Assembly (NCBI GenBank): GCA_043732705.1
Contig: JAYTHE010000006.1
Span: 12,284 to 76,283, forward strand
DNA: 64,000 nucleotides
Source: Candidatus Omnitrophota bacterium
GTDB lineage: Bacteria; Omnitrophota; Omnitrophia; Omnitrophales; Aquincolibacteriaceae
Direction: 5' to 3'
Below are positions 17,086-59,814 of the stretch, piece by piece. The translations under genes and the position numbers were made by a program. Each line of letters starts with the position of its first letter. The stretch's first letter is position 1. The notes beneath the pieces are model-generated. The model was given only the letters and a program-made list of their open reading frames with translations. It was not told the DNA's origin and ran no database searches.

Positions 17086-17212
17086 TGAAAAATTCCATCT
17101 ACTGCGTTACAAGCTTCACAGCGGTTCGCTTGCGAATCGCCAAACGATTCATAGGCTTGTGCGGCGTATTTCTGCATACGCCTCCGCGGGCACTCGCTTG
17201 CGCCTTGTATTT
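17086..17212 (+). repeat. family-B ~100-127-nt repeat immediately after the thiG stop (…TCCATCT(A/G)CTGCGTT…TGTGCGGCGTATTTCTGCATACGCCTCCGCGG…CTTGCGCCTTG…)
   Basis: Three near-identical copies (17086, 27694, 59718), all + orientation, all starting at a TGA/TAA-AAAA stop context. Confidence 0.6.
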
Positions 17213-17243
17213 GATCAAACTATAAGAAACAGGAAGGTTTGTT

Positions 17244-18317
17244 GTGTATAAAATCGCATTATTGCCGGGCGACGGCATTGGTCTCGAAGTTACGGAACAA
17301 GTTGTAAAAATTTTAAAAAAACTGCAATCCGAATTTCATATTGTTTTTGAAACCGAAAAATATTTGATTGGCGGGTGCTCGATTGATGCGCATGGCGAAC
17401 CTTTGACGGATGAAACGCTCGCTAAAATTAAAAAAGCGGATGCAGTTTTTCTTGGCGCGGTCGGCGGACCCAAATGGGATAATCTTGAATCGGCGAAACG
17501 CCCGGAAAAAGGATTGTTGAAGCTGCGCAAAGGTTTGAATGCTTACGCCAACGTTCGTCCGGTCAAAATGTTTGACGCGCTGGTTCAACGATCTTCCTTA
17601 AAACCTGAAATTGTGAAGGGGCTCGACTTCGTCATTTTACGCGAATTGGTGAGCGGAATTTATTTCGGCGAACCGCGCGGGTTCAAAAAAAACGCAGCGG
17701 GTGAAGAACAGGGTTTCAATACCATGATTTACTCCGAATCCGAAGTCGAACGCATTGCGAAAAAAGCATTTGAAATCGCGCGTAAGCGAAAAAAAATCGT
17801 CACTTCGGTAGATAAAGCAAATGTGCTCGAAGTTTCCCAGCTTTGGCGCAAAGTTGTTGAGCGTGTTCACAAACAATATCCGGACGTTCAGTTGAATCAC
17901 CGTTATGTGGATGATTGCGCGATGCAGTTTATCCGCGATCCAAAGCAATTTGACGTTGTTGTTACCGGAAATTTATTCGGAGATATTTTAAGTGATGAAG
18001 CTGCGATGCTCACGGGTTCGATTGGCATGCTGCCGTCAGCTTCGCTTGGCGACACGATCGGCCTTTATGAGCCGGTGCATGGTTCCGCACCTGATATCGC
18101 GGGCCAGGACAAAGCTAATCCCTTGGCATCGATTTTGACTCTGGCCATGATGCTGGAGTCGAGCTTTAATTTGTTTGATTTATCGGATAAATTAGTTAAA
18201 GCCGTTGAGTCTGTTTTGACCGAAGGCTACCGTACCGGTGATATTTTTACTGAAGGTTCGAAACTTGTCAGCTGTTCCAAAATGGGCGATTTGATCGCGG
18301 AACGGATTAAAAAATGA
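17244..18317 (+). CDS. leuB: 3-isopropylmalate dehydrogenase (isocitrate/isopropylmalate DH family)
   Basis: NLFGDILSDEAAMLTGSIGMLPSASLG signature; 357 aa. Confidence 0.7.
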   Translation: MYKIALLPGDGIGLEVTEQVVKILKKLQSEFHIVFETEKYLIGGCSIDAHGEPLTDETLAKIKKADAVFLGAVGGPKWDNLESAKRPEKGLLKLRKGLNAYANVRPVKMFDALVQRSSLKPEIVKGLDFVILRELVSGIYFGEPRGFKKNAAGEEQGFNTMIYSESEVERIAKKAFEIARKRKKIVTSVDKANVLEVSQLWRKVVERVHKQYPDVQLNHRYVDDCAMQFIRDPKQFDVVVTGNLFGDILSDEAAMLTGSIGMLPSASLGDTIGLYEPVHGSAPDIAGQDKANPLASILTLAMMLESSFNLFDLSDKLVKAVESVLTEGYRTGDIFTEGSKLVSCSKMGDLIAERIKK

Positions 18318-18414
18318 CATGCAAAGCATGTCATCCCGTAAAACGAACGAAGTGAGTTTATACGGGATCTAGATTCCCATTTTCGCGGGATTTTTTTGAT
18401 TTTAAAAGGATTTT

Positions 18415-19506
18415 ATGAAGAAGAAAGACAAATATAATATTGCGGTCGTGGGCGCAAAGGGCGCCGTCGGCTATGAAATGATCAAGCTGCTTGCTGATTC
18501 TAAAATCGCAGTTGGGGAATTCAAGCCTTTCGGATCGGCGCGCACAAAAGGCGCCGAGATTTTATTTCGCGGCAAGACTTACAAAAATAACGAACTCAAA
18601 TCGACACGTGAAGAGTTCAAAGGTATCGACATTGTTTTGTCGAGTCCGGGCGCTTCGGTCAGCAAGCAATTTGCGCCAGCTGCAATTGCTGAAGGGGCGA
18701 TTATTATCGATAACACCAGCGCATTTCGCATGGATCCAAAGGTCCCGCTTGTGATTCCTGAAATTAACGCGAGTGATATTAAAGAAGACAGCAAAATCAT
18801 CGCCAATCCGAATTGTTCGGCGATTATGATGTTGATGGCTGTTGCGCCTTTACATAAGGTTAATCGAATCCGCCGCATTCATTGCGCCACCTATCAGGCT
18901 GTCAGCGGTGCCGGTGCGACGGCCATGGTCGAACTTTATTCCCAGGCCAAAGAATTTGTTGAGCGTGTTGAGAAGAACCCAAAGAGTAAAAGCGATTTGC
19001 TGGCTGCGGTCCAGGATGAAACCGACCGTTTAAGTAAATCTCCGCTTGCTAAGAGCGTTTTTCCGCATCAAATTGCATTCAATTTGTTTTCGCATAACGC
19101 TGCGATTGAAGATAAAGGTTATAACGGTGAAGAGTTAAAAATGATCCAGGAATCGAAAAAGATTCTGCATGATAACTCGATTCAAATCGCGACCACCTGT
19201 ATCCGCGTGCCGGTATTACGTGCGCACACCGAAGTGCTCTACATAGAGTTTGAGAAGAAAATGACACCGGATGAAGCTCTTGGAATTTTGATCAAGTCTC
19301 CGGGTATCGAAATCCAAAACAATCCGAAAGATAATCATTTTCCGATGCCGATCGAGGCTACCGGTAAAAAGAAAGTGCTCGTGGGCCGTATCCGCGAAGA
19401 TTTGTCCTGCGAAAACGGGTTAGCTCTCATGGTTTCCGGCGATCAATTGTGGAAAGGTGCAGCCCTCAATGCCGTTCAAATCGCCGAGTATCTTGTCAGC
19501 CATTGA
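18415..19506 (+). CDS. asd: aspartate-semialdehyde dehydrogenase
   Basis: NIAVVGAKGAVG Rossmann N-terminus and active-site NCSAI motif. Confidence 0.85.
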   Translation: MKKKDKYNIAVVGAKGAVGYEMIKLLADSKIAVGEFKPFGSARTKGAEILFRGKTYKNNELKSTREEFKGIDIVLSSPGASVSKQFAPAAIAEGAIIIDNTSAFRMDPKVPLVIPEINASDIKEDSKIIANPNCSAIMMLMAVAPLHKVNRIRRIHCATYQAVSGAGATAMVELYSQAKEFVERVEKNPKSKSDLLAAVQDETDRLSKSPLAKSVFPHQIAFNLFSHNAAIEDKGYNGEELKMIQESKKILHDNSIQIATTCIRVPVLRAHTEVLYIEFEKKMTPDEALGILIKSPGIEIQNNPKDNHFPMPIEATGKKKVLVGRIREDLSCENGLALMVSGDQLWKGAALNAVQIAEYLVSH

Positions 19507-19636
19507 AAGTGGCTCGTCTGCGGCGTTACAAATTCGCAATTTTCAGTCAACGTGCGTTTTCAGCGCGCCTTCTTCGATTGCTCATTTGTGCCTTGCATCC
19601 TAACCATTTTGAATGGCTTCTCTTTCGTCAACTTTT

Positions 19637-20455
19637 ATGAAGAGCGCAAAACTGCGAAACATTAAACCGACGCTTGGCAGTATTCGACACATCAAGCTCA
19701 CACTTGAGTATGACGGCACCGATTTTTTCGGATTTCAGCGCCAGCCTAATCAACCGACAGTCCAGCAAGCAATCGAAGAAGCGCTCGAAAAATTACTCCA
19801 GCAAAAAACACGGCTGATTTCAGCCAGCAGCCGCACGGACGCGGGTGTGCATGCCGAAGAACAAATTATTCATTTCAAAACAGAAAGTATTTTGGCGCTG
19901 CACCGGATTGAACGCGGACTGAATCATTTTTTGCCGAAATCTATTGCGGTTACAAAAGCAGAAGAAGTTTCCGCGGACTTTCACGCGCGCTTTCAGCCTG
20001 TTGCTAAAATTTACGAATATCGCATTTGGAATCATTTTTCGCATCCTGCGATTTGGCGCAACCGAGCCTGCCACATCGTTGGTGAATTAGATTTGACGGC
20101 AATCAAACATGCCGCCAAATTTTTAACGGGTAAGCATGACTTTCGCGCTTTCACTTCGGTTGAAGTGATTGTCAAAAGTCGGACTATTGCCCGCAAAAAA
20201 ATTTCTTTTGTCCGTACTATTAAGAAATTAAATATTAAAAAACAGGGCAAAATGTTGATTTTTACCGTGGTGGCCGATGGTTTTCTTTATCATATGGTGC
20301 GTAATCTCGTCGGTACTTTGACGGCGGTTGGGAAGGGGAAAATGAAGGCCGGAGATATGCCCGCAATCTTAAAATCCCATGACCGTAAGCGTTCGGGACC
20401 TACTTTGCCTGCTTGCGGGCTAACGCTAAAACGGGTGATTTACCCGTCAGCCTAA
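19637..20455 (+). CDS. truA: tRNA pseudouridine(38-40) synthase
   Basis: LEYDGTDFFGFQRQ...RTDAGVHA motifs; start placed at MKSAKL ATG. Confidence 0.85.
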   Translation: MKSAKLRNIKPTLGSIRHIKLTLEYDGTDFFGFQRQPNQPTVQQAIEEALEKLLQQKTRLISASSRTDAGVHAEEQIIHFKTESILALHRIERGLNHFLPKSIAVTKAEEVSADFHARFQPVAKIYEYRIWNHFSHPAIWRNRACHIVGELDLTAIKHAAKFLTGKHDFRAFTSVEVIVKSRTIARKKISFVRTIKKLNIKKQGKMLIFTVVADGFLYHMVRNLVGTLTAVGKGKMKAGDMPAILKSHDRKRSGPTLPACGLTLKRVIYPSA

Positions 20456-20529
20456 AAGGCTAAAAAGCCGCGCTCTATTCGAGGGTAAGCCTAGGGGAAA
20501 ATACCTTAGTAGAGCGTAAGAAAATAATT

Positions 20530-20558
20530 TTGACACCCCCCAAGTCCTTTGCTATACT
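20530..20558 (+). promoter_or_regulatory. strong sigma70 promoter TTGACA-N17-TGCTATACT (extended -10) for rplM-rpsI
   Basis: Consensus -35, 17-nt spacer, TGn-extended -10, read from sequence. Confidence 0.55.
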
Positions 20559-20590
20559 CCGCTCTCTTTTGCCGCCCTGTTTTGTATTCG

Positions 20591-20658
20591 CCTCTGTGCG
20601 CTAAGGCGCACAACCGAGCGGTAATAATTGTTTGGCTCTGCGCTTCGCGCAACCGCAA
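20591..20658 (+). repeat. two tandem family-C REP-like hairpins in the rplM leader
   Basis: CTCTGTGCGC-TAAG-GCGCACAACCG then GCTCTGCGC-TTC-GCGCAACCGCAA. Confidence 0.5.
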
Positions 20659-20688
20659 AGCGGTTTACAGCATGAAATTAAGGGAACT

Positions 20689-21117: not shown

Positions 21118-21122
21118 ATAAA

Positions 21123-21512: not shown

Positions 21513-21514
21513 TT

Positions 21515-21706
21515 ATGTTTTTGCCTCTGCGGCCAGCTTTTTTAGCTCTGTCGCGTTGGCACAACTGCAGCAACCGGCGGCTCAAATCAGCAGTGGTTGT
21601 TTTTATTTTGTTGCTGGCATTCGGAGTTCTCTCCGGATGCCAGTCTTTTTTTGAGGATTACCAGTACGCGCCGGTAGCATCGTCGTCGTCCGGTTCTTCT
21701 TACTAA
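21515..21706 (+). CDS. candidate small lipoprotein (63 aa; signal peptide with lipobox LSGC, Ser-rich tail)
   Basis: RRLKSAVVVFILLLAFGVLSGCQ is a textbook lipoprotein signal; no obvious RBS, start uncertain. Confidence 0.3.
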   Translation: MFLPLRPAFLALSRWHNCSNRRLKSAVVVFILLLAFGVLSGCQSFFEDYQYAPVASSSSGSSY

Positions 21707-21760: not shown

Positions 21761-21871
21761 ATGAATCCCGTTAGACTCTTAACCAACGTTGTTATAAATA
21801 ATTATAAATTTATGTGTAGGAAAATTTTGCATTCATACAGATTTTATTTGAAGAGAGTCTAACGGGATGAA
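21761..21871 (+). repeat. family-A ~110-nt MITE-like element flush with the AsmA-like gene start codon
   Basis: See 14521..14631. Confidence 0.6.
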
Positions 21872-24317: not shown

Positions 24318-24508
24318 CATTTAGGTTCTGGGCGGAACGCCCAACCACCGGTCCTCAACTCTAATATTTAATCAAGCTTCCCTGATAGAGCCATTTGCTG
24401 CTTTGCGTTTGAGCGAAGCTCAGAGCAAAAATTATAGCCGGAATTTTTTCCGCAGTTTGATGACGAGATTCCTAGCAGCTTTTAAATGAAGCCGCAAGTT
24501 AAGGAGTA

Positions 24509-24589: not shown

Positions 24590-25300
24590 TTATAATTTGA
24601 ATCGCTTTCTCAATTTAAGTACTAGCATTCTCGCTGCTTTTTCTTCCGCTTCTTTTCTGGATCTTGCCACTGCTTTGGCGCGTTTCTGTCCATCGATCCA
24701 GGCGACAACCTGAATTCCCTTGGCGACCTGTGAGCTGTCATATTGAGGCAGTTTTTTCCAGTGTTTCTGGCTGATTTCTTGAAGCGTGCTTTTTGGATTG
24801 GGATCAAGCCGGAAAAGTTTTTTAATGTCAAAGTATTCGTCAAAGTGCGTGAGAATAAAATTTTCCGCGGCTTTTTTTCCGCGGTCAAAATAAATGGCGG
24901 CGATTAAAGATTCAAAAACATCCGCCAGCACCTTTGCTTTCAGAAAAGACGGGGAGGACTTTTTAAATCCGCGCCCAAGCCGCATAAATTTATTCAGTTT
25001 CAGGTCTCGCGCGATTTTAATTAGGATTCTGCGTGAAACGAGCGTGGACCGGAGACGGCTCAAAAGTCCTTCGTCGGCATCCTTAAATGTTTGATAAATT
25101 TTTCTGCAAACCACTTCGTTGAGAATGGCATCACCGAGAAACTCCATGCGGTCAAAATGATCCAATCCCGGAATCGGGTTTTCATAACGAAATGACGGGT
25201 GAGTTAAAGCGGACTCGTAACCGTACGGTTTTTTAATTTTGAGCCCCAAGGTTTTTTCAAGCGCCTTGAAATCAATGGGGCGAATCGTGCGTGTTGCCAT
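24590..25300 (-). CDS. rnc: ribonuclease III
   Basis: RNase III signature HPSF...ERMEFLGDAILN and C-terminal dsRBD. Confidence 0.9.
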   Translation of the reverse strand: MATRTIRPIDFKALEKTLGLKIKKPYGYESALTHPSFRYENPIPGLDHFDRMEFLGDAILNEVVCRKIYQTFKDADEGLLSRLRSTLVSRRILIKIARDLKLNKFMRLGRGFKKSSPSFLKAKVLADVFESLIAAIYFDRGKKAAENFILTHFDEYFDIKKLFRLDPNPKSTLQEISQKHWKKLPQYDSSQVAKGIQVVAWIDGQKRAKAVARSRKEAEEKAARMLVLKLRKRFKL

Positions 25301-26468: not shown

Positions 26469-27688
26469 ACAAGATGACGGGTATAAAACTTTTAAAAAAT
26501 GGTTCTTTGACTTCCGCGAAGGGGTTTCTCGCTTCCGGCATGTTTTGCGGCATCAAGCGCGTATCTAAAAAATATGATATCTCCCTCGTTGTTTCAGAAA
26601 AAGCCGCGACAGCCGCAGGCGTTTTTACGGTGAATCGCGCGAAAGCATGGCCGGTTTATCTTGCGATCAAAAATTTGAAAAATGCGAAGCATATGGCGAT
26701 TCTTGGAACAAGCGGCAATGCGAATTGTTTGAACGGCCTTACGGGTCAAGCAGCCGCATGGACATGCTTGAAAGCGGCGGCGGATGAATTGGGTGTTAAG
26801 ACGGAAGAAGTTTTAATCGCGCAAACCGGGATTATTGGGATGCGTTATCCGGTGCATTGTGTGGAGCGGGCCATGCCGGAGCTTGTCAAAAGTTTATCGA
26901 CCGAGGGTGGGCATGCCGCAGCGCGGGGAATTCTTACAACCGATAAACGCACAAAAGAAATCGGTGTTTCATTTACATTGGGCAGTAAGAAAGTAACCAT
27001 CGGCGCGGCCGCGAAAGGCGCGGGCATGGTGCATCCGTACATGGCGACCATGCTTTGTTTTATTACAACTGACGCGGCGATTTCAAAACCACTTTTGCAT
27101 AAATCTCTTAAAACTGCCGTTCAAACCACATTTAATGCGATTGCGATTGATAACGACATGAGTACGAATGACTGTGCATTTGTTTTGGCAAACGGTTTAG
27201 CGGGCAACCGTGAAATAAAAAAGGAAAACGCGGATTACAAAAAGTTTTCCGCAGCGCTTGAGTTTTTACTTAAAGAGGTCGCAGTAGGTCTTGTTGAAGA
27301 CGGTGAAGGCGTAAAACATGTTTGCCACATTACAGTGAAAAACGCTAAGTCCGATGCGGAAGCCGCAAAAGCCGCGCGGCAAGTTGGAAATTCGATGCTT
27401 TTTAAAACTATGGTTACCGGCGAAGATCCGAATTGGGGACGTATTATCGCGGCAGTCGGTGCCAGTCAGATTCAATTTAATCCGCAGAAATTTTCTGTAG
27501 CTATCGGCGGCGTGCCGATTGTACGGGAAGGTGTCGTGCGTTTTTCAAATCGTCCCAAAGCAAAAAAGGTTATGGCCAATTCCCATTTTGATGTCACCGT
27601 GGATTTGCATTATGGAAAAGGCAGCTCAACATTTGTGACTTCGGATTTAACGCACGAATATGTCTCTATCAACGGAGCTTATTCATAA
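26465..27688 (+). CDS. argJ: bifunctional glutamate N-acetyltransferase/amino-acid acetyltransferase
   Basis: ArgJ family (ATMLCFITTDAAIS autoprocessing region); start overlaps argC stop. Confidence 0.9.
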   Translation: MNKMTGIKLLKNGSLTSAKGFLASGMFCGIKRVSKKYDISLVVSEKAATAAGVFTVNRAKAWPVYLAIKNLKNAKHMAILGTSGNANCLNGLTGQAAAWTCLKAAADELGVKTEEVLIAQTGIIGMRYPVHCVERAMPELVKSLSTEGGHAAARGILTTDKRTKEIGVSFTLGSKKVTIGAAAKGAGMVHPYMATMLCFITTDAAISKPLLHKSLKTAVQTTFNAIAIDNDMSTNDCAFVLANGLAGNREIKKENADYKKFSAALEFLLKEVAVGLVEDGEGVKHVCHITVKNAKSDAEAAKAARQVGNSMLFKTMVTGEDPNWGRIIAAVGASQIQFNPQKFSVAIGGVPIVREGVVRFSNRPKAKKVMANSHFDVTVDLHYGKGSSTFVTSDLTHEYVSINGAYS

Positions 27689-27693
27689 AACCG

Positions 27694-27793
27694 ATGAAAA
27701 AGTCCATCTGCTGCGTTGCGTCCCTCGCTTCCTTGTGCGGCGTATTAGCTTATACGCCTCCGCGGTCGCTCGAACGCGCCTTGCATCTGAATC
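27694..27793 (+). repeat. family-B repeat copy after the argJ stop
   Basis: Aligned by eye with 17086 and 59718 copies. Confidence 0.6.
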
Positions 27794-27849
27794 TTTTTGA
27801 CCGGTTTTAATTTTAGTTATTTTAAGTATTGAGGATATAGATAAAGTTT

Positions 27850-28704
27850 ATGGAAGAATTGATTGCAAAAGCCAGCACGCTGATTGAAGCGCTGCCGTAT
27901 ATCAAAAGTTTCCGGGGCAAGGAAATTCTTGTTAAGTACGGCGGGGCTGCGCTTCGTCACGGTGAAGTGCGGAAACATATTCTGCAGGATCTTGTGTTTA
28001 TGCAGTTCGTCGGAATTAAACCGATTCTTGTGCATGGCGGCGGAAAACATATTACCGAAAATATGGAAAAGAAAGGTTTGGTTTCCAAATTTTTAAATGG
28101 CTTGCGCGTAACGGATGAACCGGCGGTGCAGGTGGTTGTTGAAACACTTGCCGCGATTAACCGCGAGCTGGTGAATGATTTGAATCACTTAGGCGGCAGC
28201 GCCGTAGGGCTTTCGGGACATGACAACGATATTTTGCATGTCGAGCGGCACACGAAGAACGGTGACTTGGGTTTTGTCGGCGATGTAACCAAAGTAAATA
28301 TTTTTCATATCCGCCAGATGACGGATGCAGGAATTATTCCCGTAATTTATCCGGTCGGAATCGATAAAGACGGTCAAACTTATAACGTGAACGCAGACGA
28401 AGCCGCCTGCAATATTGCGATGGCGCTTAAAGTTCCTAAGTTGATGATGCTGACTGACGTGAGAGGCGTCATGCTTAATCACAAGGATGAGAGTACATTA
28501 GTGCCGACTTTGACTTTGGAAGAAACTGAAAGCTTGATCAAAAATGGCACGATTAGCGGTGGGATGATTCCCAAAGTGGAATGCTGCCTGGAAGTCATCC
28601 GCAAAGGCGTTAAAAAAGCCCACATCGTGGACGGCCGCATGAAACATCCACTGCTTTTGGAAGTCTTCACTGATAAGGGTGTCGGAACCGAATTCGTCCG
28701 TTAA
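27850..28704 (+). CDS. argB: acetylglutamate kinase
   Basis: ILVKYGGAAL...ILVHGGG amino-acid kinase motifs. Confidence 0.9.
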   Translation: MEELIAKASTLIEALPYIKSFRGKEILVKYGGAALRHGEVRKHILQDLVFMQFVGIKPILVHGGGKHITENMEKKGLVSKFLNGLRVTDEPAVQVVVETLAAINRELVNDLNHLGGSAVGLSGHDNDILHVERHTKNGDLGFVGDVTKVNIFHIRQMTDAGIIPVIYPVGIDKDGQTYNVNADEAACNIAMALKVPKLMMLTDVRGVMLNHKDESTLVPTLTLEETESLIKNGTISGGMIPKVECCLEVIRKGVKKAHIVDGRMKHPLLLEVFTDKGVGTEFVR

Positions 28705-29992: not shown

Positions 29993-29995
29993 GTT

Positions 29996-32142: not shown

Positions 32143-32236
32143 AGCCATAACCAAAAGCTTTTTAACCGATCGAAAGCCTTTGGGCTTTAAGCTATAGTCT
32201 TGAGTTTTAACCTTTAACCTTTGGGCTAAAATTTTT

Positions 32237-37066: not shown

Positions 37067-38248
37067 ATGAAAGAAGAATTAGCTCCGCAACAAGAACAGC
37101 CTCTGTCGCCCAATAAATCAAAAACATCGGCTTCCTTCGGTATTGATGATCTTGTCAGGGACATGCTGAAAAAGCATAAGACGCCTTTTATGCTGATTCG
37201 CCGCTCTGTGCTTCGCAAGCAGTATGAGCGTTTCCGCAAATGTCTTCCGGAAGTCACACCTTATTACGCCATTAAAGCCAATCCTTATCCCAAAATCATT
37301 AAAGAGTTTGTTGATTTGGGCGCAGGGTTTGACGTGGCGAGCGCGGAAGAAATGAAATTGGTATTGAAACTCGGCGCATCGACCAGCAAGGTCATTTTCG
37401 CGAACACGATTAAGTCCGAGGAAGATATTCAGGCCGCGAAACGCCGCCGCGTCAACCTCATGACGTTTGACAGCGAAACCGAACTTTATAAAATTGCTGA
37501 AAATTTTCCCGGGGCGCATGTTGTTGCGCGTATCAAAGTCGCGAATTTAGGCAGTGTTGTTCAGCTCTCGCTCAAATTCGGCTGCGATCCCGAACAGGCA
37601 TTCTTTCTTTTGAAAAAAGCGAAGGCGCTTGGCCTTGTTCCGAAAGGCATTAGCTTTCATGTCGGCTCGCAATCGCGCAACGTTGAAAATTACCTCCAGG
37701 CGCTTGAGATTACCGCCGCGATTTTCGAAGAAGCGGAATCAAACGGCATGCCGCTCAAGATCGTGGATATTGGCGGGGGATTTCCGATTCAGCATTTTGA
37801 CAATGAAATTGGTATTAATTTTGAACGCATGGCCGCGCAAATCCGTAAGCAGCTCAAAAAACTTTTCAGCAGCAATGTAAAATTTATTGCTGAGCCGGGT
37901 CGTTTTTTTGTCGGGCCTTCCGGAATTTTGGTGACCAAAGTTGTAGGCCGCAGTTTCAGAAATAACAAAAGTTATTACTATTTGAATGACGGTATTTACC
38001 AAGATTTTTCAGGAATGGTGTTCGATCATTGCAAATATGAATTCAAAACTTTGCGCCGCGGGCCCAAGTTCATGTGTACCCTCGCGGGGCCGACCTGCGA
38101 CTCATTTGACACCCTGGCGGAGAACGCCGAAATGCCCGAGCTCAATTTAGACGATATCGTCTATGTAAAGAATATCGGCGCTTATTCCTCAGCGAGTGCT
38201 GTACCTAACTTTAACGGGTTTCCGCCTGCCAAAATTGTCCTCATTTGA
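37067..38248 (+). CDS. ornithine/lysine decarboxylase, eukaryotic-type (fold III PLP decarboxylase)
   Basis: YAIKANP PLP-binding lysine motif, GGGFP, C-terminal CDSFD region; beside hss it is a likely putrescine-forming ODC. Confidence 0.75.
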   Translation: MKEELAPQQEQPLSPNKSKTSASFGIDDLVRDMLKKHKTPFMLIRRSVLRKQYERFRKCLPEVTPYYAIKANPYPKIIKEFVDLGAGFDVASAEEMKLVLKLGASTSKVIFANTIKSEEDIQAAKRRRVNLMTFDSETELYKIAENFPGAHVVARIKVANLGSVVQLSLKFGCDPEQAFFLLKKAKALGLVPKGISFHVGSQSRNVENYLQALEITAAIFEEAESNGMPLKIVDIGGGFPIQHFDNEIGINFERMAAQIRKQLKKLFSSNVKFIAEPGRFFVGPSGILVTKVVGRSFRNNKSYYYLNDGIYQDFSGMVFDHCKYEFKTLRRGPKFMCTLAGPTCDSFDTLAENAEMPELNLDDIVYVKNIGAYSSASAVPNFNGFPPAKIVLI

Positions 38249-38450
38249 TCTTGTTTGCGTCGCTCGATAAAGCTCGCGGTGCGGAGGCATTTCAAGCTTT
38301 GCGTTCCTCAACGTACCAGACCGTACGCCTCGGAAAACTTCACTTCATAAGCCTTGTATCCAAAGCCTTTTGAGTCAAAACTCCTCTAAAAACACCATAA
38401 ATTTTAGCTTAAATTGGCCTCTCAATTTGTTACAATACCCGTTCTTAAAT

Positions 38451-42968: not shown

Positions 42969-45900
42969 ATGAAAAAAGAAATTAAAAAAGTAATTTCGGG
43001 ATTGATGATTGCCGCGCTCGTTTTGACGGGTTTGCAGCCGCATGCCTTTGCCCGCGCCATCATGGAGTCCTCGCCGGTTTCAACGGATCCTTTTTCAATT
43101 CACAATTCTTTGATTAATCCGGGCTTTGAAGGCGCTATCAGCAGCGGCTTTGGAAATTGGGATAGTACTAATGGAGTTACGCGTGTAACAACGCCCCCAG
43201 GACTTTTTACAGCCTTCCCTGAAGGAAGCGCGGCGCTTTCCGTTACGCCGGGAACTTTTACTTTTCAGGTTGTGGATCATGTTAAGCCCGGGGATGTTGT
43301 GTCATTTAGTGCTTTGGCATCGTCTAACTTTGCCATCGGCGTTAATGCGGCAGATTTGAAGATAGAATTTAAAAGAATTAATTCCGACGGTAGTGACACT
43401 TTAATTTCAACGGCGCCTCTTTCCTCCAATATAAACGATACAAGCGCTCCTGTTGGGAGTTATACACTTTTTACTGCTTCCGGAGTTGTGCCGGCGGGTG
43501 CGAATCGTGTTATTGCGGTCATTGAGACATCGGGTGGGGCGGCGGCGACTCGCGCTATTATTGATAAGACTGTGATTTCCATTAATCCGACGGCTTTCCG
43601 TGTCGAGCTCTCGAAGCGCAGTGCGAAGGCCGGTGATGTGGTTCCCGCGCGCGTTACTTTTACCAATCAATCTAATAGTACCTTTACCGGTGTCCAATTG
43701 CATACGGTGGTTCCCAAAGGCATGAATGTGAATCTCTCTGAGGTTCGTAATAATGGACAAGACGCGCATGCCACCGAAGGTTCGGTGATTATACCGATCG
43801 GGACCGTCGTTGCGGGCGCTAGCTTCAGCCTCGTGCTTCCGATCGCGATTACCGGTGGAGTGATGCCGGGGCATGTTTACGATCTTGATTTTACTTTGAT
43901 GGATTCTGCGAGCATGCATGAAACCGCGCGCGAACGGCTTTTGATCGAAGAAGACCCGATGTTTGACCAAAGCACTGTGATCGGAAAAGTTTTTCATGAC
44001 CGCAACCGCGACGGCAAACAGCAGGAAGGTGAAGAGGGCATGTCTTTCGTGAACCTTTACACCGAGCAAGGCATTATGGTTACAACCGATGAAAACGGAA
44101 TGTACCATATTCCTAATATGAATCCCGGCCGCCATGTGCTTAAGATTGACGCGCATACTCTTCCCGACAACACAGAATTTATTACCGAAGAATCTTATTT
44201 GTTTAAAAGTACTCCGGGCGTGATGAATAAAGTTAATTTTGCTGTGGCTCCGCGCGGCAAGGCAGATTGGGAAGGCGGCAATCCAAACATGCCTGAGGAC
44301 TTTAAAGGCGACCTCAATGTGCAGATTACGCAGGGTTTGGACACAGCTCCGCCGCAGCTTGACGTGAAGATGGAACCGGATGTTTTACGTTTGGGCGCCG
44401 GCATTTTAGAGCGTCAACCTCTTTTCAGTTTTGACATTAATTATCCGCATGTGGTGAAAAAGTGGATGCTTGAAATTCGCGATGAAATGGGCCGCAAGGT
44501 TTGGTCGGGTTATGGTATTGGAAAACCTCCCGCGGACGTGATGTGGGAAGGATTAACGGACGCGGGCGTTCTGATTCAACCCGGAATTTATTCTTATCAG
44601 TTTAAAGTAGAAGATGACAAAGGCCGGCAGGATTGGACTTTGCTCAAATTTTTCCGTGTCTTTTCAAAGGTCGGGAAAACCGCTGTCGGAGAGGATTGGG
44701 AAGGTTCGCGCAAAGAAGAAAAGGTTTATCAGGCCAGCCCCAAAGCGGATCCGAATTACCGCGAAGAAATTTCACCCGTCGGAAATTTCAATCTTTTTCA
44801 AGACGGGAAACGCAGCATTCCTTTGATTGCCAAACCAACCGTACGTGTACGCGGGCGAACACATCCGGGTTTTAAAGCGTATATCAATGACGCGCCGGTG
44901 GATGTGAATGATGAAACGGGCCGTTTCGATAAAGAATTTTACGTGAAGCCCGGTGAAAATGAATTTGTAATCAATGTCGTTTCACCGGAAGGGGAAAGCA
45001 CGCTTTATACCGAAAAAGTGAAAGTTAAAGACAGTATGTTTTTCATGGTCGGATTGGGCGAGCAGGAATTGGGTAAAAATTTTGGAAAAGGAGCTGTTGA
45101 GACGGCGGGCGGCGATAAGCAGTATCGGGATGGTTTTTATCAGAATGGACGTTTGGCTTATTTTCTGAAAGGTAAGTTGAAAGGAAAATTCCTGATTAAA
45201 TCGAAGTTTGATTCCGGCGATAAGCGTTCGGCGCTTTTTACCAATCTTGATCCCGATCAGTACTATCCGATTTATGGTGATAAATCGCAGATCAGTTATG
45301 AGGGGCTCAATACCGAATCCCGTTTTTACACGCTTGTAGAAATGGACCGCTCTTTTTTACGCTGGGGAAGTTTTCAAACGCAATTTGATGATACCGAATT
45401 AGCCAGCTATAACCGCACGCTTTCCGGTTTACAGGTTCACCACGAATCGCTACAAACCACGCCTTACGGCGACCCTAAACGCGGCTTTAAAGTTTTTTGG
45501 TCTGAAAGCAAAAATCGGTCAGCGCATGTGGAGCTCGAATCCACCGGCGGGACACTTTATTATCTGCGCGATCGCAATATTGTTCAGGGCAGCGAACAGC
45601 TGCATGTTGAGATCCGGGATAAACTGCAGGACATTTCCATCGGCCGCTATGATCTGAAAGAAGGTGCGGATTATGAAATTGATTATGAATCCGGCAGAAT
45701 TATGCTCACTCGTCCGCTTTCATCGCTTGCCGCGCCGAACACGCTTTTTTCAACCGACCTGGCTGACGGCAACAGAATTTTTTTAACGGCTGATTATGAA
45801 TATGTCGCTGGCTTTGATCCCGCGAAAGTCGGAGATCGCGGCGCGCGCGGCTATGTGCATTTGGGCGACCACATTCGTGTGGGCGGAACACTTGTTGAAG

Positions 45901-47738
45901 AAAAGCGTGACGCGGTGGATTACGATATGCGCGGAGTCGACATGACCATGAAATTCGGCCGCAATACGCGCATTATTTCGGAGTATGCTACGACCATCAA
46001 TCAGCAGGGAGACCAGACGGTTTCTTATGACGGAGGTTTGACATTCGCGAATCTGGGGCCGCTTTCGGACCGCAAAGATGAAGCTCGCAGCCGCGCTTAT
46101 TTAATTAAAGCTGAAAGTAAACCGGTTAAGAACTTAGAAGTGAGCGGATTTTTACAAGGCGTATCGCCGGGCTTTTCAAATGATACTTTGAAAAGCCAGG
46201 AAGGTTATAAAAAGTATGGTTTCGCGAGTCGTTATCGTTTGACGGACAATTTACACGCCAAATACCGCTATGATCATAATGAGATCACAGACAGCCTGCT
46301 GCCGTTGACTTCCAGTTCCGTTTTAGCACCGTATGAAAATATGAACGCGCATACGCTGGGCCTGACTTATGACGATGGCCTTTGGCTCGCAGAGACTGAA
46401 TATCTTCACCGAACCCTTGATGGTCCTGACAATGAAAGCCGTGTTTCGCCTTCGCTTGAATCCGAAATTCCTTTTAATGACGGTGTGGTCTCCAAATTAG
46501 GATACCGCGTGAATGACAAATTCATGCCTTATGCCAAGGCACAAACTTCCTTTCATACGAAGGGTGACACGCAGCTTGGCGGCGGCATGCGCTATGAAGT
46601 TGCGCAAAATCTTTACGCTTACCTTGAACAGATGTTCGGTAAAATCGGAGATTCCACTTTATTTGGAATTGAAAAGCATCACGGCAATGGATCAAGCACT
46701 TATGCCAATTTAAAATCACTCGACCGTGGTATTGGCTACAAAACATTGACGACCGCGGTCGGCAGTAATTATTTCATGGATAACGGTTCGCGGCTTTATT
46801 CGGAGCGCGAAATCACGACCTACAATGCCAAAGATGGCTTTGCCGACATTATGGGTTACGATGGCAAGGCCGGTGATCATTGGGATTACGGCGGACGTTT
46901 TGAGCGCCGCCGTCTGCAGGATTCAACCACCCAGCGTTTAGATATTTTAGCCAGCAGCGCCCTTGCGCGCGCGAATGCTTATAACACCGTGGGCGCACAT
47001 GTGGCCTACATTGGTACGGAACAAAGAGAAGGCGCGGGCGCGGCTCAGCATTATTCTCCTTTCGATAAACTGAAAGCACGCGTTTCGGGCGAAGTTCGTA
47101 AAGATCAAAATAACCCCAATCTTTGGCAGGTGGTAACGCGTGATTCCGTTGAATACAAAATAACCCGTGATTTAAATTTTATGACCTACTTGAATTCCGG
47201 CGTGACGCATTTAACAAAGCATGTTTTTAATGCTGATTTTATGGAGTGGAATACAGGCTTTGCCTACCGCCCGATCAATTTCGACCGTCTCAATTTACTG
47301 ACGCGTTATACTTATGTTGAAAACAATCTTGATTATTTACAGTTGAGCGGCAAGCTGGATAGCTCGGCGCACATTATTCAGCTTGATGCGTCCTATGACG
47401 TGAACCGTTATTTTGAGATTGTTGAGAAGGTTGGTTTCAAGCGCGCGGTCGCGTCTTATTTTTCTGATGATGCCATACTGAATTCGATGCTTTGGGCAAA
47501 CCGCATTAACTTTCACGTTACACGGAAATGGGATGTCGCGACAGAGTATCGCATCCTTTTTCAGGGGAATGCCGCGGACACGAAAAAACACGGAGCTCTT
47601 TTTGAAGTGGACCGCGAAATTTATGAATATGTGCGTGTCGGCGCCGGTTATGACTTTGCTAATTTTACCGATGACCTGAGAAAGGCCAACAACTACTCAA
47701 GTCACGGGCCTTTTGTCCGTATGACAGGGAAGTTCTAA
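42969..47738 (+). CDS. giant (1589 aa) outer-membrane protein: signal peptide, CBM4_9-like N-domain (LINPGFEG...W), DUF11-like repeat, Cna-B/SdrD-B-like domain, very large C-terminal beta-barrel-like region ending ...FVRMTGKF
   Basis: Domain motifs read from the translation; C-terminal Phe and ~1000 aa of beta-strand-like alternation. Confidence 0.5.
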   Translation: MKKEIKKVISGLMIAALVLTGLQPHAFARAIMESSPVSTDPFSIHNSLINPGFEGAISSGFGNWDSTNGVTRVTTPPGLFTAFPEGSAALSVTPGTFTFQVVDHVKPGDVVSFSALASSNFAIGVNAADLKIEFKRINSDGSDTLISTAPLSSNINDTSAPVGSYTLFTASGVVPAGANRVIAVIETSGGAAATRAIIDKTVISINPTAFRVELSKRSAKAGDVVPARVTFTNQSNSTFTGVQLHTVVPKGMNVNLSEVRNNGQDAHATEGSVIIPIGTVVAGASFSLVLPIAITGGVMPGHVYDLDFTLMDSASMHETARERLLIEEDPMFDQSTVIGKVFHDRNRDGKQQEGEEGMSFVNLYTEQGIMVTTDENGMYHIPNMNPGRHVLKIDAHTLPDNTEFITEESYLFKSTPGVMNKVNFAVAPRGKADWEGGNPNMPEDFKGDLNVQITQGLDTAPPQLDVKMEPDVLRLGAGILERQPLFSFDINYPHVVKKWMLEIRDEMGRKVWSGYGIGKPPADVMWEGLTDAGVLIQPGIYSYQFKVEDDKGRQDWTLLKFFRVFSKVGKTAVGEDWEGSRKEEKVYQASPKADPNYREEISPVGNFNLFQDGKRSIPLIAKPTVRVRGRTHPGFKAYINDAPVDVNDETGRFDKEFYVKPGENEFVINVVSPEGESTLYTEKVKVKDSMFFMVGLGEQELGKNFGKGAVETAGGDKQYRDGFYQNGRLAYFLKGKLKGKFLIKSKFDSGDKRSALFTNLDPDQYYPIYGDKSQISYEGLNTESRFYTLVEMDRSFLRWGSFQTQFDDTELASYNRTLSGLQVHHESLQTTPYGDPKRGFKVFWSESKNRSAHVELESTGGTLYYLRDRNIVQGSEQLHVEIRDKLQDISIGRYDLKEGADYEIDYESGRIMLTRPLSSLAAPNTLFSTDLADGNRIFLTADYEYVAGFDPAKVGDRGARGYVHLGDHIRVGGTLVEEKRDAVDYDMRGVDMTMKFGRNTRIISEYATTINQQGDQTVSYDGGLTFANLGPLSDRKDEARSRAYLIKAESKPVKNLEVSGFLQGVSPGFSNDTLKSQEGYKKYGFASRYRLTDNLHAKYRYDHNEITDSLLPLTSSSVLAPYENMNAHTLGLTYDDGLWLAETEYLHRTLDGPDNESRVSPSLESEIPFNDGVVSKLGYRVNDKFMPYAKAQTSFHTKGDTQLGGGMRYEVAQNLYAYLEQMFGKIGDSTLFGIEKHHGNGSSTYANLKSLDRGIGYKTLTTAVGSNYFMDNGSRLYSEREITTYNAKDGFADIMGYDGKAGDHWDYGGRFERRRLQDSTTQRLDILASSALARANAYNTVGAHVAYIGTEQREGAGAAQHYSPFDKLKARVSGEVRKDQNNPNLWQVVTRDSVEYKITRDLNFMTYLNSGVTHLTKHVFNADFMEWNTGFAYRPINFDRLNLLTRYTYVENNLDYLQLSGKLDSSAHIIQLDASYDVNRYFEIVEKVGFKRAVASYFSDDAILNSMLWANRINFHVTRKWDVATEYRILFQGNAADTKKHGALFEVDREIYEYVRVGAGYDFANFTDDLRKANNYSSHGPFVRMTGKF

Positions 47739-47770
47739 CTCGAGTTGTTTTCGTTCTGAGCTATTTCTTC

Positions 47771-47859
47771 TTGCTTCTGCGCATTGCACAACCAGCGAAG
47801 TAGCTCAACTGCGGTTTGCGTGGCACAGTTTTTTTGCTCTGTGCTTCACACAACTGCAA
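47771..47859 (+). repeat. cluster of two or more family-C REP-like elements between the giant OMP gene and the lipoprotein gene
   Basis: TTGCTTCTGCGCATTGCACAACCAGCGAA and TTTTTTTGCTCTGTGCTTCACACAACTGCAA. Confidence 0.45.
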
Positions 47860-47887
47860 TTTGCATTAATTTTTAAACGGAGGAACT

Positions 47888-56009: not shown

Positions 56010-56021
56010 CGGGGGAAAAGC

Positions 56022-56597: not shown

Positions 56598-56605
56598 ATT
56601 TGACT

Positions 56606-57691
56606 ATGGCGCAGAAAAGAGATTATTACTCGGTGCTTAGCGTTGAGCGCACCGCGACTGGCGAAGAAATTAAAAAATCCTACCGTAAAGTTGCGATGCA
56701 ATACCACCCCGACCGTAACCCCGGCGATCATGCCGCCGAAGAAATGTTCAAAGAAGCTGCAGAAGCTTACGCTATTTTAAGCGATTCAGCCAAGCGCGCT
56801 CAGTACGACCAATTCGGCCACTCGCTGGGCGGTGGGCGCGGAGGTTTTTCCGGTGATTACGGAGACGTCGGTGATATTTTTGAAGATGTATTTGAAGGTT
56901 TTTTTGGAGGAGGCGGAAGACGCAATCCCAACCGTGCACAAAAAGGCTCAGACCTCGAATATAAAATTGAAATGACTCTAGAAGAAGTTTTGAAGCCGAA
57001 AACTTTGGATCTTAAAATTCCGCGGCTGGAAAACTGCAGTGAATGTTCTGGAAGCGGTGCCGCGCCCGGATCTAAAAAAGTAACCTGTAATGATTGCCGC
57101 GGCAGCGGACAGATTCGTGTTTCCCAGGGTTTTTTTAATATGCAGACGACTTGTCCGCGCTGCCGCGGAGCAGGCGCATTTATTGACAAGCCCTGTAAGC
57201 CTTGCGGCGGTGCCGGACGTGTGAGAGATACACGCAAGCTGGAAGTGAAGATTCCGGCAGGCATGGACCATGGAACGCGTCTTAAAGTAACAGGGGAAGG
57301 CGAGGCGGGACAAAATGGCGGGCCGCGCGGAGACTTGTATGTTCAGGTGCTACTCAAAAAACACGATTTGTTTGAGCGGAATCATGAAGATATTCATTGC
57401 GAATGGAGTATTCCGTACACAGCGGCAGTTTTGGGCGGGACAGTTTCAGTTCCGACGCTTGAAAAAGAGGCAAGTTTAAAAATTCCTGCCGGCACAGTTC
57501 CGGGAAGAGCTTTAAAAGTTGAAGGCGCCGGTATTCCGTTTGTGCGTTCGCCTGACCGTCGGGGAGACCTTTACATCCATGTTCAGATTGAAGTGCCCGA
57601 AAAAGTTTCCAAGCGTGAAAAAGAGCTTTTGGAAGAGTTGGCCAAAGAGCGCGGCGAGAAAGTAAAAGCAAAAAAAGGGATGTTTAGTTAG
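56606..57691 (+). CDS. dnaJ: molecular chaperone DnaJ
   Basis: J-domain with HPD, G/F-rich region, four CxxCxGxG zinc-finger repeats. Confidence 0.9.
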   Translation: MAQKRDYYSVLSVERTATGEEIKKSYRKVAMQYHPDRNPGDHAAEEMFKEAAEAYAILSDSAKRAQYDQFGHSLGGGRGGFSGDYGDVGDIFEDVFEGFFGGGGRRNPNRAQKGSDLEYKIEMTLEEVLKPKTLDLKIPRLENCSECSGSGAAPGSKKVTCNDCRGSGQIRVSQGFFNMQTTCPRCRGAGAFIDKPCKPCGGAGRVRDTRKLEVKIPAGMDHGTRLKVTGEGEAGQNGGPRGDLYVQVLLKKHDLFERNHEDIHCEWSIPYTAAVLGGTVSVPTLEKEASLKIPAGTVPGRALKVEGAGIPFVRSPDRRGDLYIHVQIEVPEKVSKREKELLEELAKERGEKVKAKKGMFS

Positions 57692-57983
57692 GTTCTGTCG
57701 ACCTTTTTTATAAAATAGCGACAGGCCCGCATTGCAAGCAGTACAAGGAACGAGGGAGGAAGGCGCACCCGTGTGGTGCGTCGACGATGGAGTGACGAAG
57801 TAATGCTTCGCAATCCGTCCTGTCCCTCTGAAAATATCATTAACGGGTTATGGTGGCATGGTTGCCATTCCGGCGTTGTTTTCTCCTTGGCGTAGTGCAT
57901 CGACTACGCCGTCGTCGTCACGCCTTGGACTGACAACCATGGCACTCATAACGCTAATTTACAAAAAAGGTCGGCAGAACCTC

Positions 57984-58406
57984 ATGGAATATTTTGATTA
58001 TCACACCCGCGTGATTTACCGCGATACCGACAAAATGGGTATCAGTTATTACGCTAACTATTTTGTTTGGTTTGAGGCTGCACGCACCGAATATTTCCGG
58101 GCTTTGGGATTGCCCTATACAGAATGCGAAAAAAAGGGTATTTTCCTGCCTGTGATCGAAGCGAATGCCAAATATATCGCGCCCTCGACTTACGATGACA
58201 AATTAATCGTTAGAACAAGCGTCAGTAAATTTACACCGAGCACAATCCGTTTCGAATATTTGGTTGTCAACGCCGCGACTGAAAAAATTCTGACGCAAGG
58301 TTTTACGGTACATGTTTTTGTTGATCGAGAAATGAATCCCTGCCGCGTTCCCCACGAAGTCGAATCAATCGTAGAGATTTATTCGCTGTTTGATTCCAAA
58401 AAATAA
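57984..58406 (+). CDS. YbgC/4HBT-family acyl-CoA thioesterase
   Basis: YYANYFVWFEAARTEYF hot-dog fold signature; start placed at MEYFDY ATG. Confidence 0.7.
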   Translation: MEYFDYHTRVIYRDTDKMGISYYANYFVWFEAARTEYFRALGLPYTECEKKGIFLPVIEANAKYIAPSTYDDKLIVRTSVSKFTPSTIRFEYLVVNAATEKILTQGFTVHVFVDREMNPCRVPHEVESIVEIYSLFDSKK

Positions 58407-58699
58407 ATTCTGCGTTGCAATTTTTAGAATGATGTTGCGGTTGAGCGAAGCTCAGAGCAAAAAAATATCTCAGAGAAATCACAGAAAAATTTTGACTGTG
58501 TGCCCGCACGGTGTTAAAGTAGCCGCGCTTCGAAAGACCTTGTCCCACGGGCTTTTCCGCGGGATACTATTTATTCTGCTCCGAGCTTTGCTTAACCGCA
58601 AAGTAATGGCTTAGCATGGACGAAGCGAATTGAAATTCAAAAGCGGGACGATGTTTGTTGCGCTCTGAGCCGCGGCTCAATCGCAAAACAAAAGGAAAG

Positions 58700-59710
58700 A
58701 TGGCTGGAACCGAACGAGTGACTGTTTTGGGGGATGGAGGATGGGGGACAGCGCTTGCGCTTGTGAACGCGCGGCGCGGAAATGATGTCCTGCTATGGTC
58801 CGCTTTCCCCGAATATGCCGCGCAAATGAAAGAGCGCCGTGAAAATTTTAAATTTCTTCCCGATGTACCGCTTCCGAAAAATATTCATATTACTTCTGAC
58901 TTGAATGAAGCGCTGCTTTTCGCCGAAATCGTTATTTTAGCTATTCCGACGCAATTTATGCGTAGTGTTCTTCAAAAAGTGCGGCCGCTCGTGCGCGGAA
59001 AAAAGATTTTTGTCAGTGTTGCCAAGGGCATTGAAAAACAAACCTGTATGCGACCCTCGCAGATCGTTTCAGCCGAATTGGGCGATGTTCCGCTTGTCAT
59101 TTTAAGCGGTCCTTCGCATGCCGAAGAGGTTTCGCGCGGTATTCCGACTCTGGTTGTGGCGGCTTCCAAAAAAGTGGAATACGCGAATAAGATTCAAGAG
59201 ACGTTTAAAGACAAATTTTTCCGTATTTATGTTCAGCATGATTGGGCCGGTGTAGAGTTGGGTGGCGCTTTGAAAAATGTCGTTGCTGTCGCGGCGGGAG
59301 TTTGTGACGGCCTTGGCTTTGGAGATAACACGAAATCAGGCCTTTTAACCCGCGGCCTTTTTGAAATGAGCCGTATGGGCGTAAAAATGGGTGCGAATCC
59401 GACAACTTTTTTTGGACTTTCGGGCGCGGGCGATTTAATGACGACTTGCTTCTCAAATCATGGACGTAATTTAAAAGTCGGCCGCGAATTAGGTAAGGGC
59501 CGTAAGATCAAAGAAATTTTAGATGAAATGGAAATGGTCGCGGAAGGCGTTGCGTCCGCGGAGGCTGTGCATGAACTTTGCCAACGCGAAGGCATTTCTC
59601 TTCCGATCATGGAAGAGGTTTATAATATTCTTTGTAAGGATAAAGATCCCAAACAAGCGGTTTCCGACTTACTGAGCCGTGACGCATACGAAGAGTGGAA
59701 ACAGTACTAA
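58700..59710 (+). CDS. gpsA: NAD(P)H-dependent glycerol-3-phosphate dehydrogenase
   Basis: VTVLGDGGWGTALA Rossmann motif, GpsA C-terminal domain; RBS AAGGAAA. Confidence 0.85.
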   Translation: MAGTERVTVLGDGGWGTALALVNARRGNDVLLWSAFPEYAAQMKERRENFKFLPDVPLPKNIHITSDLNEALLFAEIVILAIPTQFMRSVLQKVRPLVRGKKIFVSVAKGIEKQTCMRPSQIVSAELGDVPLVILSGPSHAEEVSRGIPTLVVAASKKVEYANKIQETFKDKFFRIYVQHDWAGVELGGALKNVVAVAAGVCDGLGFGDNTKSGLLTRGLFEMSRMGVKMGANPTTFFGLSGAGDLMTTCFSNHGRNLKVGRELGKGRKIKEILDEMEMVAEGVASAEAVHELCQREGISLPIMEEVYNILCKDKDPKQAVSDLLSRDAYEEWKQY

Positions 59711-59717
59711 TGGTCCC

Positions 59718-59814
59718 TGAAAAACTCTCATCTGCTGCGTTGCAAGCAGCGCTTCTTTGTGCGGCGTATTTCCGTATACGCCTCCGCAGTCGCTCGCTTG
59801 CGCCTTGCATCTAA
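59718..59814 (+). repeat. family-B repeat copy after the gpsA stop
   Basis: Aligned by eye with 17086 and 27694 copies. Confidence 0.6.

Follow-up and report, generated by a model that had tools for sequence, protein, structure and literature searches.

An oriented family of hairpin elements abutting stop codons in Candidatus Omnitrophota, with apparent relatives in other bacterial phyla

The stretch of DNA analysed here, called the window throughout, comprises 64,000 nucleotides (nt) of a Candidatus Omnitrophota genome (GenBank assembly GCA_043732705.1, contig JAYTHE010000006.1, positions 12,284 to 76,283 of the forward strand), and it carries several copies of a dispersed hairpin element that lies directly after the stop codons of housekeeping genes. 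The neighbours of these copies encode ThiG, a LeuB-like protein, Asd, TruA, ArgJ, ArgB, GpsA and HU and are found in conserved synteny, the window being 77-87% identical in nucleotide sequence to syntenic contigs of the Omnitrophota metagenome-assembled genome (MAG) JAYSWD01. A copy is carried by about 5 of the ~50 window genes. An earlier note on this DNA had described three copies, at the 3' ends of genes that it named thiG, argJ and gpsA; Pfam matches bear out these names, and the set has to be enlarged by a fourth, divergent copy (c4) and by an apparent spread across phyla, both of which the note had missed. The copies in the window are as follows, with bit scores from a covariance model of the family.

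17077-17223, + strand: c1, after thiG (16300-17085), with 5' arm AAAGTCTGA at 17077-17085 and 3' arm TCAAACTAT at 17215-17223.
27687-27809, + strand: c2, after argJ (stop codon 27686-27688), with arms AAAACCG / CGGTTTT; 130.7 bits.
59709-59833, + strand: c3, after gpsA (stop codon 59708-59710) and upstream of the HU gene (59914), with arms AATGGTCCC / GTGACCATT; 139.1 bits.
19499-19617, + strand: c4, of a divergent subfamily, directly after asd, with arms GCCAT / ATGGC; 78 bits, c4 itself being in the training alignment.

Membership of one family is directly established, and the homology of c1 to c3 asserted in the earlier note is not a product of chance. The 31-mer TTGTGCGGCGTATT-N5-ATACGCCTCCGC has exactly three matches in the window, at 17157, 27733 and 59757, all on the + strand, and none in 100 shuffles of the window that preserve its dinucleotides, while an nhmmer profile built from the copies recovers c1 to c3 at E = 1e-27 to 1e-31. 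With the covariance model, c3 reaches 139 bits and c2 131 bits, but read in reverse the same sites give no more than 25-34 bits, and the orientation of the element is therefore well defined. The extents first given for the three copies (17086-17212, 27694-27793 and 59718-59814) were too short, because copy-specific complementary arms of 5-10 nt flank the conserved TGAAAAAG...CTTTTTGA. In c1 the 5' arm AAAGTCTGA is made up of the final two codons of thiG plus its stop; TGAAAAA follows from 17086, the apical stem occupies 17163-17182 and a 3' TGA lies at 17212-17214. Compared with its ortholog at locus L006, which is free of the insertion and keeps the full 3' end, c1 has a net internal gain of 33 nt (17115-17155, with a small hairpin of its own) and a 10-nt 3' deletion. 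On the 3' side of c2, a 40-nt A+T-rich tail with a new ribosome-binding site runs up to argB (start 27850). The stop codon of asd is the 5' TGA of c4 itself (19504-19506), and the apical stem of this copy is the variant AACGTGC.../...GCGCGCC.

Each copy folds as one interrupted hairpin of ~125 nt with a stem of ~45-55 bp; the GGCGTAT-loop-ATACGCC hairpin of the earlier note is present as its apical stem, the long structure around it having gone unseen. From the outside inwards, the hairpin consists of the copy-specific arm, a T-G-A in which G faces G, and a pairing of A-tract with T-tract. A first variable stem leads to a conserved block in which CATCTGCTGCGTTGC faces GCGCCTTGCATCTGA with partial pairing that includes fixed pyrimidine-pyrimidine mismatches as well as G.T wobbles; above this come another variable stem and, at the top, CTTGTGC / TCCGCGG followed by the apical GGCGTAT-N5-8-ATACGCC stem. 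Conservation peaks at the apex and in the internal loops instead of at the termini. In the covariance analysis suggested in the earlier note, the family shows strong compensatory covariation, the mark of a selected structure. In a MAFFT alignment of 75 copies made blind to structure, RNAalifold finds compensatory changes in 15/15 pairs with few breaks, and columns 44/105 alone contain CG 31, AU 20, UA 13 and GC 6. In a model-based alignment of 121 matches, which is fitted to the structure and hence biased towards pairing, 89.1% of cells are paired as against 69.4% after shuffling, double changes occur in 44/46 pairs, and the covariation score of 0.476 falls to 0.151 on shuffling and to 0.06-0.09 once partners are shifted by 1-3 columns; in the same alignment, the A side of the A-tract/T-tract pair is nearly always 5' and the T side 3' (AU 91-105, UA 2-4). 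The outer 8-nt arms vary in sequence from copy to copy and yet form 5.75/8 Watson-Crick pairs, compared with 3.13 when partners are swapped. Even within a single locus, between c3 and its ortholog at L033, 2 of the ~10 differences are compensatory double changes (U-A to C-G; G.U to U-A). A search of the whole window with Rfam 15 at gathering thresholds returned two tRNAs only and no family for the elements, and a permissive search of 27600-27900 gave only chance-level matches (E above 2).

The common orientation of the first three copies is real, all of them being on the + strand, but it proves little by itself, because all but one (rnc) of the ~50 window genes are on the + strand as well. In the wider sample of copies described below, the upstream open reading frame (ORF) is on the same strand as the element in 66/74 copies with a callable ORF, and tandem contexts are 53 sense to 7 antisense; the family is thus dispersed, oriented and tied to gene 3' ends, as the earlier note had suspected. 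The ORF stop ends at model positions 1-9 in 66/79 copies, with a mode at 5-6, and pairing exceeds chance from model column 6-7, so that the helix begins 0-3 nt past the stop in ~85% of copies. All three stop codons are used (TAA 39, TAG 20, TGA 20 in 79 copies), which speaks against a target restricted to TA or to one type of stop. The next gene follows at 12-278 nt, a broad range whose median is near 41. Several ideas about this junction were rejected. The stop codon is not part of the helix, pairing being at chance outside model columns 6-7; that the TGA at both ends is conserved as a functional stop is not supported, as its G is only ~70% conserved at an unpaired position where other bases occur, and the 5' TGA has no frame preference relative to the upstream gene. 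Nor does the element encode a small protein: c1 and c2 open with ATGAAAAA in one frame, but ATG is found there in only 13/62 copies, indels between copies are not multiples of three, and the three frames are about equally open. At 32143-32236, a window hairpin unrelated in sequence occupies the slot in which L020 has the focal element; different hairpins therefore fill the same post-stop slot in different genomes.

The wider sample comes from a scan of one genome per species with the apical core as pattern, which gave at least 115 loci; profile and covariance-model searches of these loci recovered at least ~115 further copies, and several loci hold two or three, some of them not matching the scan pattern. 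Among the matches listed, most copies are in Candidatus Omnitrophota MAGs, with more than 20 loci from each of two MAGs. Full-length matches of 35-83 bits outside Omnitrophota come from Christensenellaceae (with the cultured Christensenella intestinihominis AF73-05CM02 among them), Desulfobacteraceae, a Desulfovibrio isolate, Geobacter, Thermodesulfobacteriota, Gemmatimonadota, Bdellovibrionales and Clostridia, ~25 bits of each such score being forced by the search pattern. The resemblance is nonetheless taken to be real, because the CTGCGTT and GCCTTG blocks are present, the architecture is the same and one copy is independent of the pattern: the second copy of a deltaproteobacterial MAG, which the pattern had not picked out, shows the compensated core GGCGTAC/GTACGCC. 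By these sequence comparisons, the family core appears common to at least six phyla, and the placement rule is the same outside Omnitrophota, the core following the stop at 48-63 nt in most of 28 copies. In Desulfovibrio the element sits, in sense orientation, in the transcribed spacer between the 23S and 5S ribosomal RNA (rRNA) genes of three rRNA operons. In Desulfovibrio sp. 7SRBS1 (L073, 5845-5979 and 6170-6270) this family member is accompanied by a second hairpin just past the 5S gene, which keeps the outer motifs CTGCTGCGTTGC ... GCGCCTTGCAGG around a different centre. The core was absent from the viral contigs and plasmids searched, and its literal sequences were not found in the literature searched, including the multicopy-sequence supplements of Geobacter genome papers; the family is apparently undescribed.

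Orthologous sites may be filled or empty. At L020 the argJ-argB junction is the overlapping TCATAATGG with no element, where the window has c2; at L006 asd and truA overlap with no element, where the window has c4; and a site filled at L114 is empty at L031, where it reads TCTAAATG. [quoted passage not shown] We considered whether the outer arms are pre-existing target palindromes, the element having inserted into terminator loops, and rejected this, the empty argJ-argB and L031 sites being plain stop/start junctions. As in MITEs, the unit has terminal inverted repeats and no coding capacity, the whole being an imperfect palindrome with no preferred frame. The MITE interpretation offered in the earlier note is thus supported, as regards mobility, by the filled and empty sites; it is not helped by the searches for a target duplication, a cognate transposase or an autonomous partner. 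No clear target duplication was found: in one clade both ends often have a TA close by, at positions that are not fixed, and two filled/empty pairs are too diverged to resolve their junctions. In the 4 nt outside the stems of 64 anchored copies no tetranucleotide is preferred. The REP superfamilies are defined by a GTAG or CGTC tag that stays unpaired at one of the two ends of the palindrome (PMC3733652), and here these tetranucleotides occur in no more than a few copies of the Auribacterota type. A tblastn search with RAYT-like and IS200-like queries (approximate) found no transposase in 860 kb around ~120 copies, which is a weak test, and no pair of repeats flanking an ORF, as expected of an autonomous partner insertion sequence (IS), was seen in the limited sample of loci examined, where solo terminal repeats lie only beside elements. 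In one clade (L072 1725, L042 1700, L089 3619, L083 87, L025 967) an inverted 5' terminal repeat, GGTTTTTCAGCAGACTG, recurs 15-20 nt downstream of the element; alternative pairings may result from this, or the repeat may be the trace of a nested or truncated insertion.

The copies are also old and constrained, not recent. The gpsA site is filled in three species (the window, L033 and L044) and other sites in two or three, and at such retained sites the elements evolve slowly, being 62-93% identical where third codon positions of the adjacent gene are 40-61% identical. Neutral DNA would be neither retained nor alignable at that divergence, and the copies are therefore constrained.

The nearest known kinds of element are REP/REPIN sequences and those MITEs whose transcripts fold, ERIC, Correia and RUP among them. 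REPs are extragenic palindromes in many copies, which for the most part follow coding regions and lie between genes that converge or share an orientation, and which are suspected of acting as RNA hairpins (PMC3733652). The present family, with 4-7 copies in the 64 kb of the window, is likewise a high-copy palindrome downstream of genes, and it shares with REP/REPIN its vertical persistence and the conserved mismatches within the hairpin. It differs in the ~125 nt of its unit, which has a conserved apical stem as well as three conserved blocks, whereas a REP is a 20-40-nt palindrome or a simple inverted doublet, in the absence of a GTAG/CGTC tag and, on the weak test above, of RAYT, and in showing the same core across phyla, whereas REP families are mostly lineage-specific. 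Two points of background are leads, not tests: the E. coli REP (…GATGCGGCG…CGCCTTATC…) presumably resembles CTGCGGCGTT… / …GCGCCTTGCATC of the present family, and Liang, Rudd and Deutscher reportedly found in 2015 that a REP no farther than ~15 nt from a stop codon affects how the gene upstream is translated. Correia hairpins serve as substrates of RNase III, and the effects of ERIC are orientation-dependent. Like ERIC/IRU, Correia/NEMIS, YPAL, RUP, BOX, SPRITE, Nezha and Chunjie, which are 70-300 bp long, non-coding and bounded by terminal inverted repeats, the present element is polymorphic in presence. Such MITEs, when inserted near genes, are co-transcribed, and their robust hairpins stabilise or destabilise mRNA (PMC3733652). 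The present family departs from them in that neither a TA nor another target duplication was demonstrated and no cognate IS was found, and in its most conserved apex and internal loops, the start of its helix so close to the stop, its retention across synonymous saturation and its occurrence in at least six phyla.

We tentatively favour the view that the family is a domesticated MITE/REPIN-like element which acts in cis as a co-transcribed RNA hairpin directly after the stop codon, as a 3'-end barrier, a processing site or a partial terminator. The element would have originated as small mobile DNA and would now be held by selection. Transcribed as the first nucleotides of the 3' untranslated region of the upstream gene, or of an intercistronic spacer, it would fold in the sense transcript into a single interrupted hairpin with its base 0-3 nt past the stop, and this hairpin would set or protect the 3' end of the mRNA. 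Its candidate actions are those of a barrier to 3' exonucleases, an RNase III substrate, a leaky terminator of A-tract, hairpin and U-tract, or a combination of these, and the outcome would be that expression of the upstream cistron is uncoupled from that of the downstream cistron. The parts of this model that we infer are that the element is transcribed, that the folded species is RNA and what the hairpin does at the molecular level. A gene for RNase III (Ribonuclease_3 and dsrm domains) is present at 24590-25300 on the - strand and is the sole convincing minus-strand gene of the window; the GC skew is positive throughout, which fits an extreme co-orientation of genes with replication.

Several observations weigh against this model, whose main uncertainty is which strand or molecule folds. 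That the element is transcribed together with the upstream gene is assumed, as is any processing, and the same covariation would be expected from a role at the DNA level. The - strand is predicted to be the more stable in 52/64 copies, and in stems with a Watson-Crick consensus the + strand has A.C (which is G.U on the - strand) 199 times and G.T 90 times; the excess of A.C is largely a single inherited feature of one subfamily, and with three conserved G.T wobbles of the + strand counted, G.T and A.C totals are roughly balanced overall. In 8/74 copies the element is antisense to the upstream ORF. The abutment on stop codons may have any of three causes, namely a functional need, an insertion preference or the deletion of functionless spacer in streamlined genomes, and could come from either of the latter two, not from function.

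A serious rival, although somewhat unlikely in our estimation, is that the element is purely selfish DNA, the hairpin being the single-stranded DNA substrate or the paired terminal repeats of a transposase acting in trans (RAYT/IS200-like HUH or IS630-like), and the post-stop placement reflecting a target preference and the loss of harmful insertions, with no benefit to the host. Filled and empty orthologous sites speak for this explanation. So do the many copies per genome and their occurrence in distant phyla, which suggests horizontal spread, the terminal inverted repeats such as CAGTCTGCTGAAAAAG that are common to Omnitrophota and Christensenellaceae copies, the derivatives with internal deletions or insertions, and strand tests that give the sense RNA no advantage. 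Conserved mismatches within a hairpin, such as the present family has, are the feature recognised by HUH transposases and integron integrases. For REP and RAYT, this recognition is treated in PMC3733652. What the selfish explanation leaves unaccounted for is the long life of the copies: dead copies should decay, yet orthologous copies outlast near-saturated synonymous divergence and acquire compensatory changes inside a single locus. The lack of a transposase or autonomous partner around the copies, of a tag and a clear target duplication, and of copies on the viral contigs and plasmids counts against it too, the first of these with the little weight of a weak test.

It is improbable that the element is simply a dispersed, bidirectional intrinsic terminator, in which the inner G+C-rich hairpin with UUUUU would release RNA polymerase and the 5' A-tract would serve the second direction. 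The order of A-tract, G+C-rich hairpin and T-tract is that of an intrinsic terminator, both tracts are conserved with fixed polarity, and the element lies directly after ORFs, in eight copies between convergent genes. Some arms are followed by further T-runs, e.g. CCGGTTTTAATTTT in c2, and a canonical terminator elsewhere in the window ends with the same CTTTTTTTGA. A simple terminator scanner does not call the elements, in which a 4-5-nt T-tract follows the inner hairpin with conserved polarity. In contrast to canonical terminators, the stem is several-fold longer and interrupted by many mismatches, and the short U-tract is itself paired and enclosed by a further helix of 7-10 bp. The terminator option of the earlier note agrees with the polarity but fits the context poorly, half of the tandem copies being less than ~41 nt from the start of the next co-oriented gene in conserved operons (argJ-argB), with no recognisable promoter between. 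A strong terminator is unlikely because many copies lie 12-40 nt before the next gene of an operon and because one set lies in the 23S-5S spacer, where termination would be harmful.

An antisense or independent small RNA is very improbable, whether the minus strand gives the functional transcript or a separate promoter drives a discrete RNA of ~110 nt, and the free-standing small RNA gene is the least likely of the options raised in the earlier note. The better folding of the minus strand and its greater G.U-type tolerance in the variable stems do point in this direction, as do the apical stem of c4-type copies, which pairs on the minus strand (GGCGUAC/GUACGUU) and has two A.C mismatches on the plus strand, and the conserved UC/CU mismatches, which are tandem G.A pairs on the minus strand. 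The three conserved G.U wobbles of the plus strand point the other way. At most sites there are 12-40 nt to the next gene, and the upstream side is coding, so that a promoter has no room on either strand; no promoter-like motif recurs at a fixed distance, and a fixed -35/-10 promoter composed of the conserved TTGCAT and the tail has a spacing that fits c2 and L106 and not the other copies.

Integron attC sites, 57-141 nt long, are likewise palindromes with imperfect pairing, in which unpaired bases are conserved; they lie immediately 3' of ORFs in one orientation and are read as a folded single strand, whereas here there are no R/L core boxes (RYYYAAC ... GTTRRRY is absent from the family consensus), no integrase and no cassette array. 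That the element is a double-stranded or cruciform DNA site for a DNA-binding or recombination protein, like attC or Xer/dif-like sites, hardly deserves credence: the apex does resemble a tyrosine-recombinase core site in its two ~11-bp inverted arms around a variable 5-8-bp spacer, attC sites likewise abut their cassette ORFs, and the G.T and A.C totals are balanced as described, but the attC boxes are missing, the neighbours are syntenic housekeeping genes, not cassettes, only a few of the window genes carry a copy, and the arms are conserved as different, mismatched sequences, for which a symmetric binder of double-stranded DNA has no need.

Three further places in the window may hold degenerate or distant relatives of the family.

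38251-38388, + strand: possible degenerate copy after a decarboxylase gene (37067-38248); the match is weak (fragment nhmmer E 0.16; covariance model 14.6 bits, E 0.9).
57840-57960, + strand: possible short relative upstream of a thioesterase gene; covariance model 33 bits, E 6e-5.
57712-57831, - strand: possible inverted c4-like relative, adjoining the preceding one; marginal at 20 bits, E 0.057.

The first retains ...GTACGCCTCGG... and ...GCCTTGTATCCAAAGCCTTTTGA, and the equivalent site at L109 seems, from flank similarity judged by eye only, to carry an internally deleted copy. The second shares the motifs CCGGCGTT, GGCGTAG-loop-CTACGCC and GCCTTGG with the family; in the ORF called at 57858, the thioesterase domain does not begin before residue 55. 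The third reads GACGCAC-loop-GGTGCGCCTTCCTCCCTCG on the - strand.

Other repeats and hairpins are found in the window. A second family of ~100-nt hairpins (9434-9530, 14527-14626 and 21767-21866), with arms CCCGTTAGA(G/C)T... / ...A(C/G)TCTAACGGG, ends flush at the start codons of secDF, a glgA-like glycosyltransferase gene and a YhdP-like gene of 816 amino acids; its 3' arm overlies the ribosome-binding region, and its placement is at start codons, not stop codons. The palindromes of a third family are short, resemble REPs and have the form TTTTTGCTCTGCGC-loop-GCGCAACCGCAA; they occur on both strands (11752-11790, 13506-13530, 20600-20660, 21513-21560, 24403-24431, 58435-58463 with 58557-58603, and 5842-5997), several of which start directly past stops (secDF, recJ, rpsI); the copies at 58435 and 58557 are the arms of a ~170-nt hairpin. 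Long intergenic hairpins at 8994-9113, 16094-16299 and 47739-47887 are, like that at 32143-32236, unrelated in sequence to the focal family. The segment 5799-5850, 132 nt past tRNA-Arg(CCG) (5644-5719), is 81% identical to the 3' two-thirds of this tRNA and is not called by ARAGORN; it may be a decayed tRNA duplicate or an integration scar. Finally, an ORF of 1589 amino acids at 42969-47738, whose sole Pfam match is a weak SdrD B-like domain, probably encodes a large surface protein.

Beyond the window, it can be hypothesised, although we regard this as rather doubtful, that the family is a pan-bacterial structured cis-element with the core CUUGUGCGGCGUAU-loop-AUACGCCUCCGCGG and a CUGCGUU / GCCUUG internal loop, which would be read by a conserved host factor, would require a start at the first post-stop nucleotide and would be kept by purifying selection in phyla that include Omnitrophota, Bacillota and Desulfobacterota. 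Such a host factor could be a ribonuclease, the ribosome-release machinery or another protein that binds RNA or single-stranded DNA. REP, ERIC and Correia are usually seen as lineage-specific selfish DNA with incidental effects, and the hairpin family described here departs from this picture in its core, apparently present in at least six phyla, its compensatory evolution, its retention near synonymous saturation and its nucleotide-precise sense placement at stops. It offers a testable case of mobile hairpins turning into fixed operon architecture, possibly with a conserved factor that reads them. For the barely studied and uncultured Omnitrophota the family is a practical annotation feature, and the cultured carriers, Christensenella intestinihominis and the Desulfovibrio isolate, open the way to experiments.

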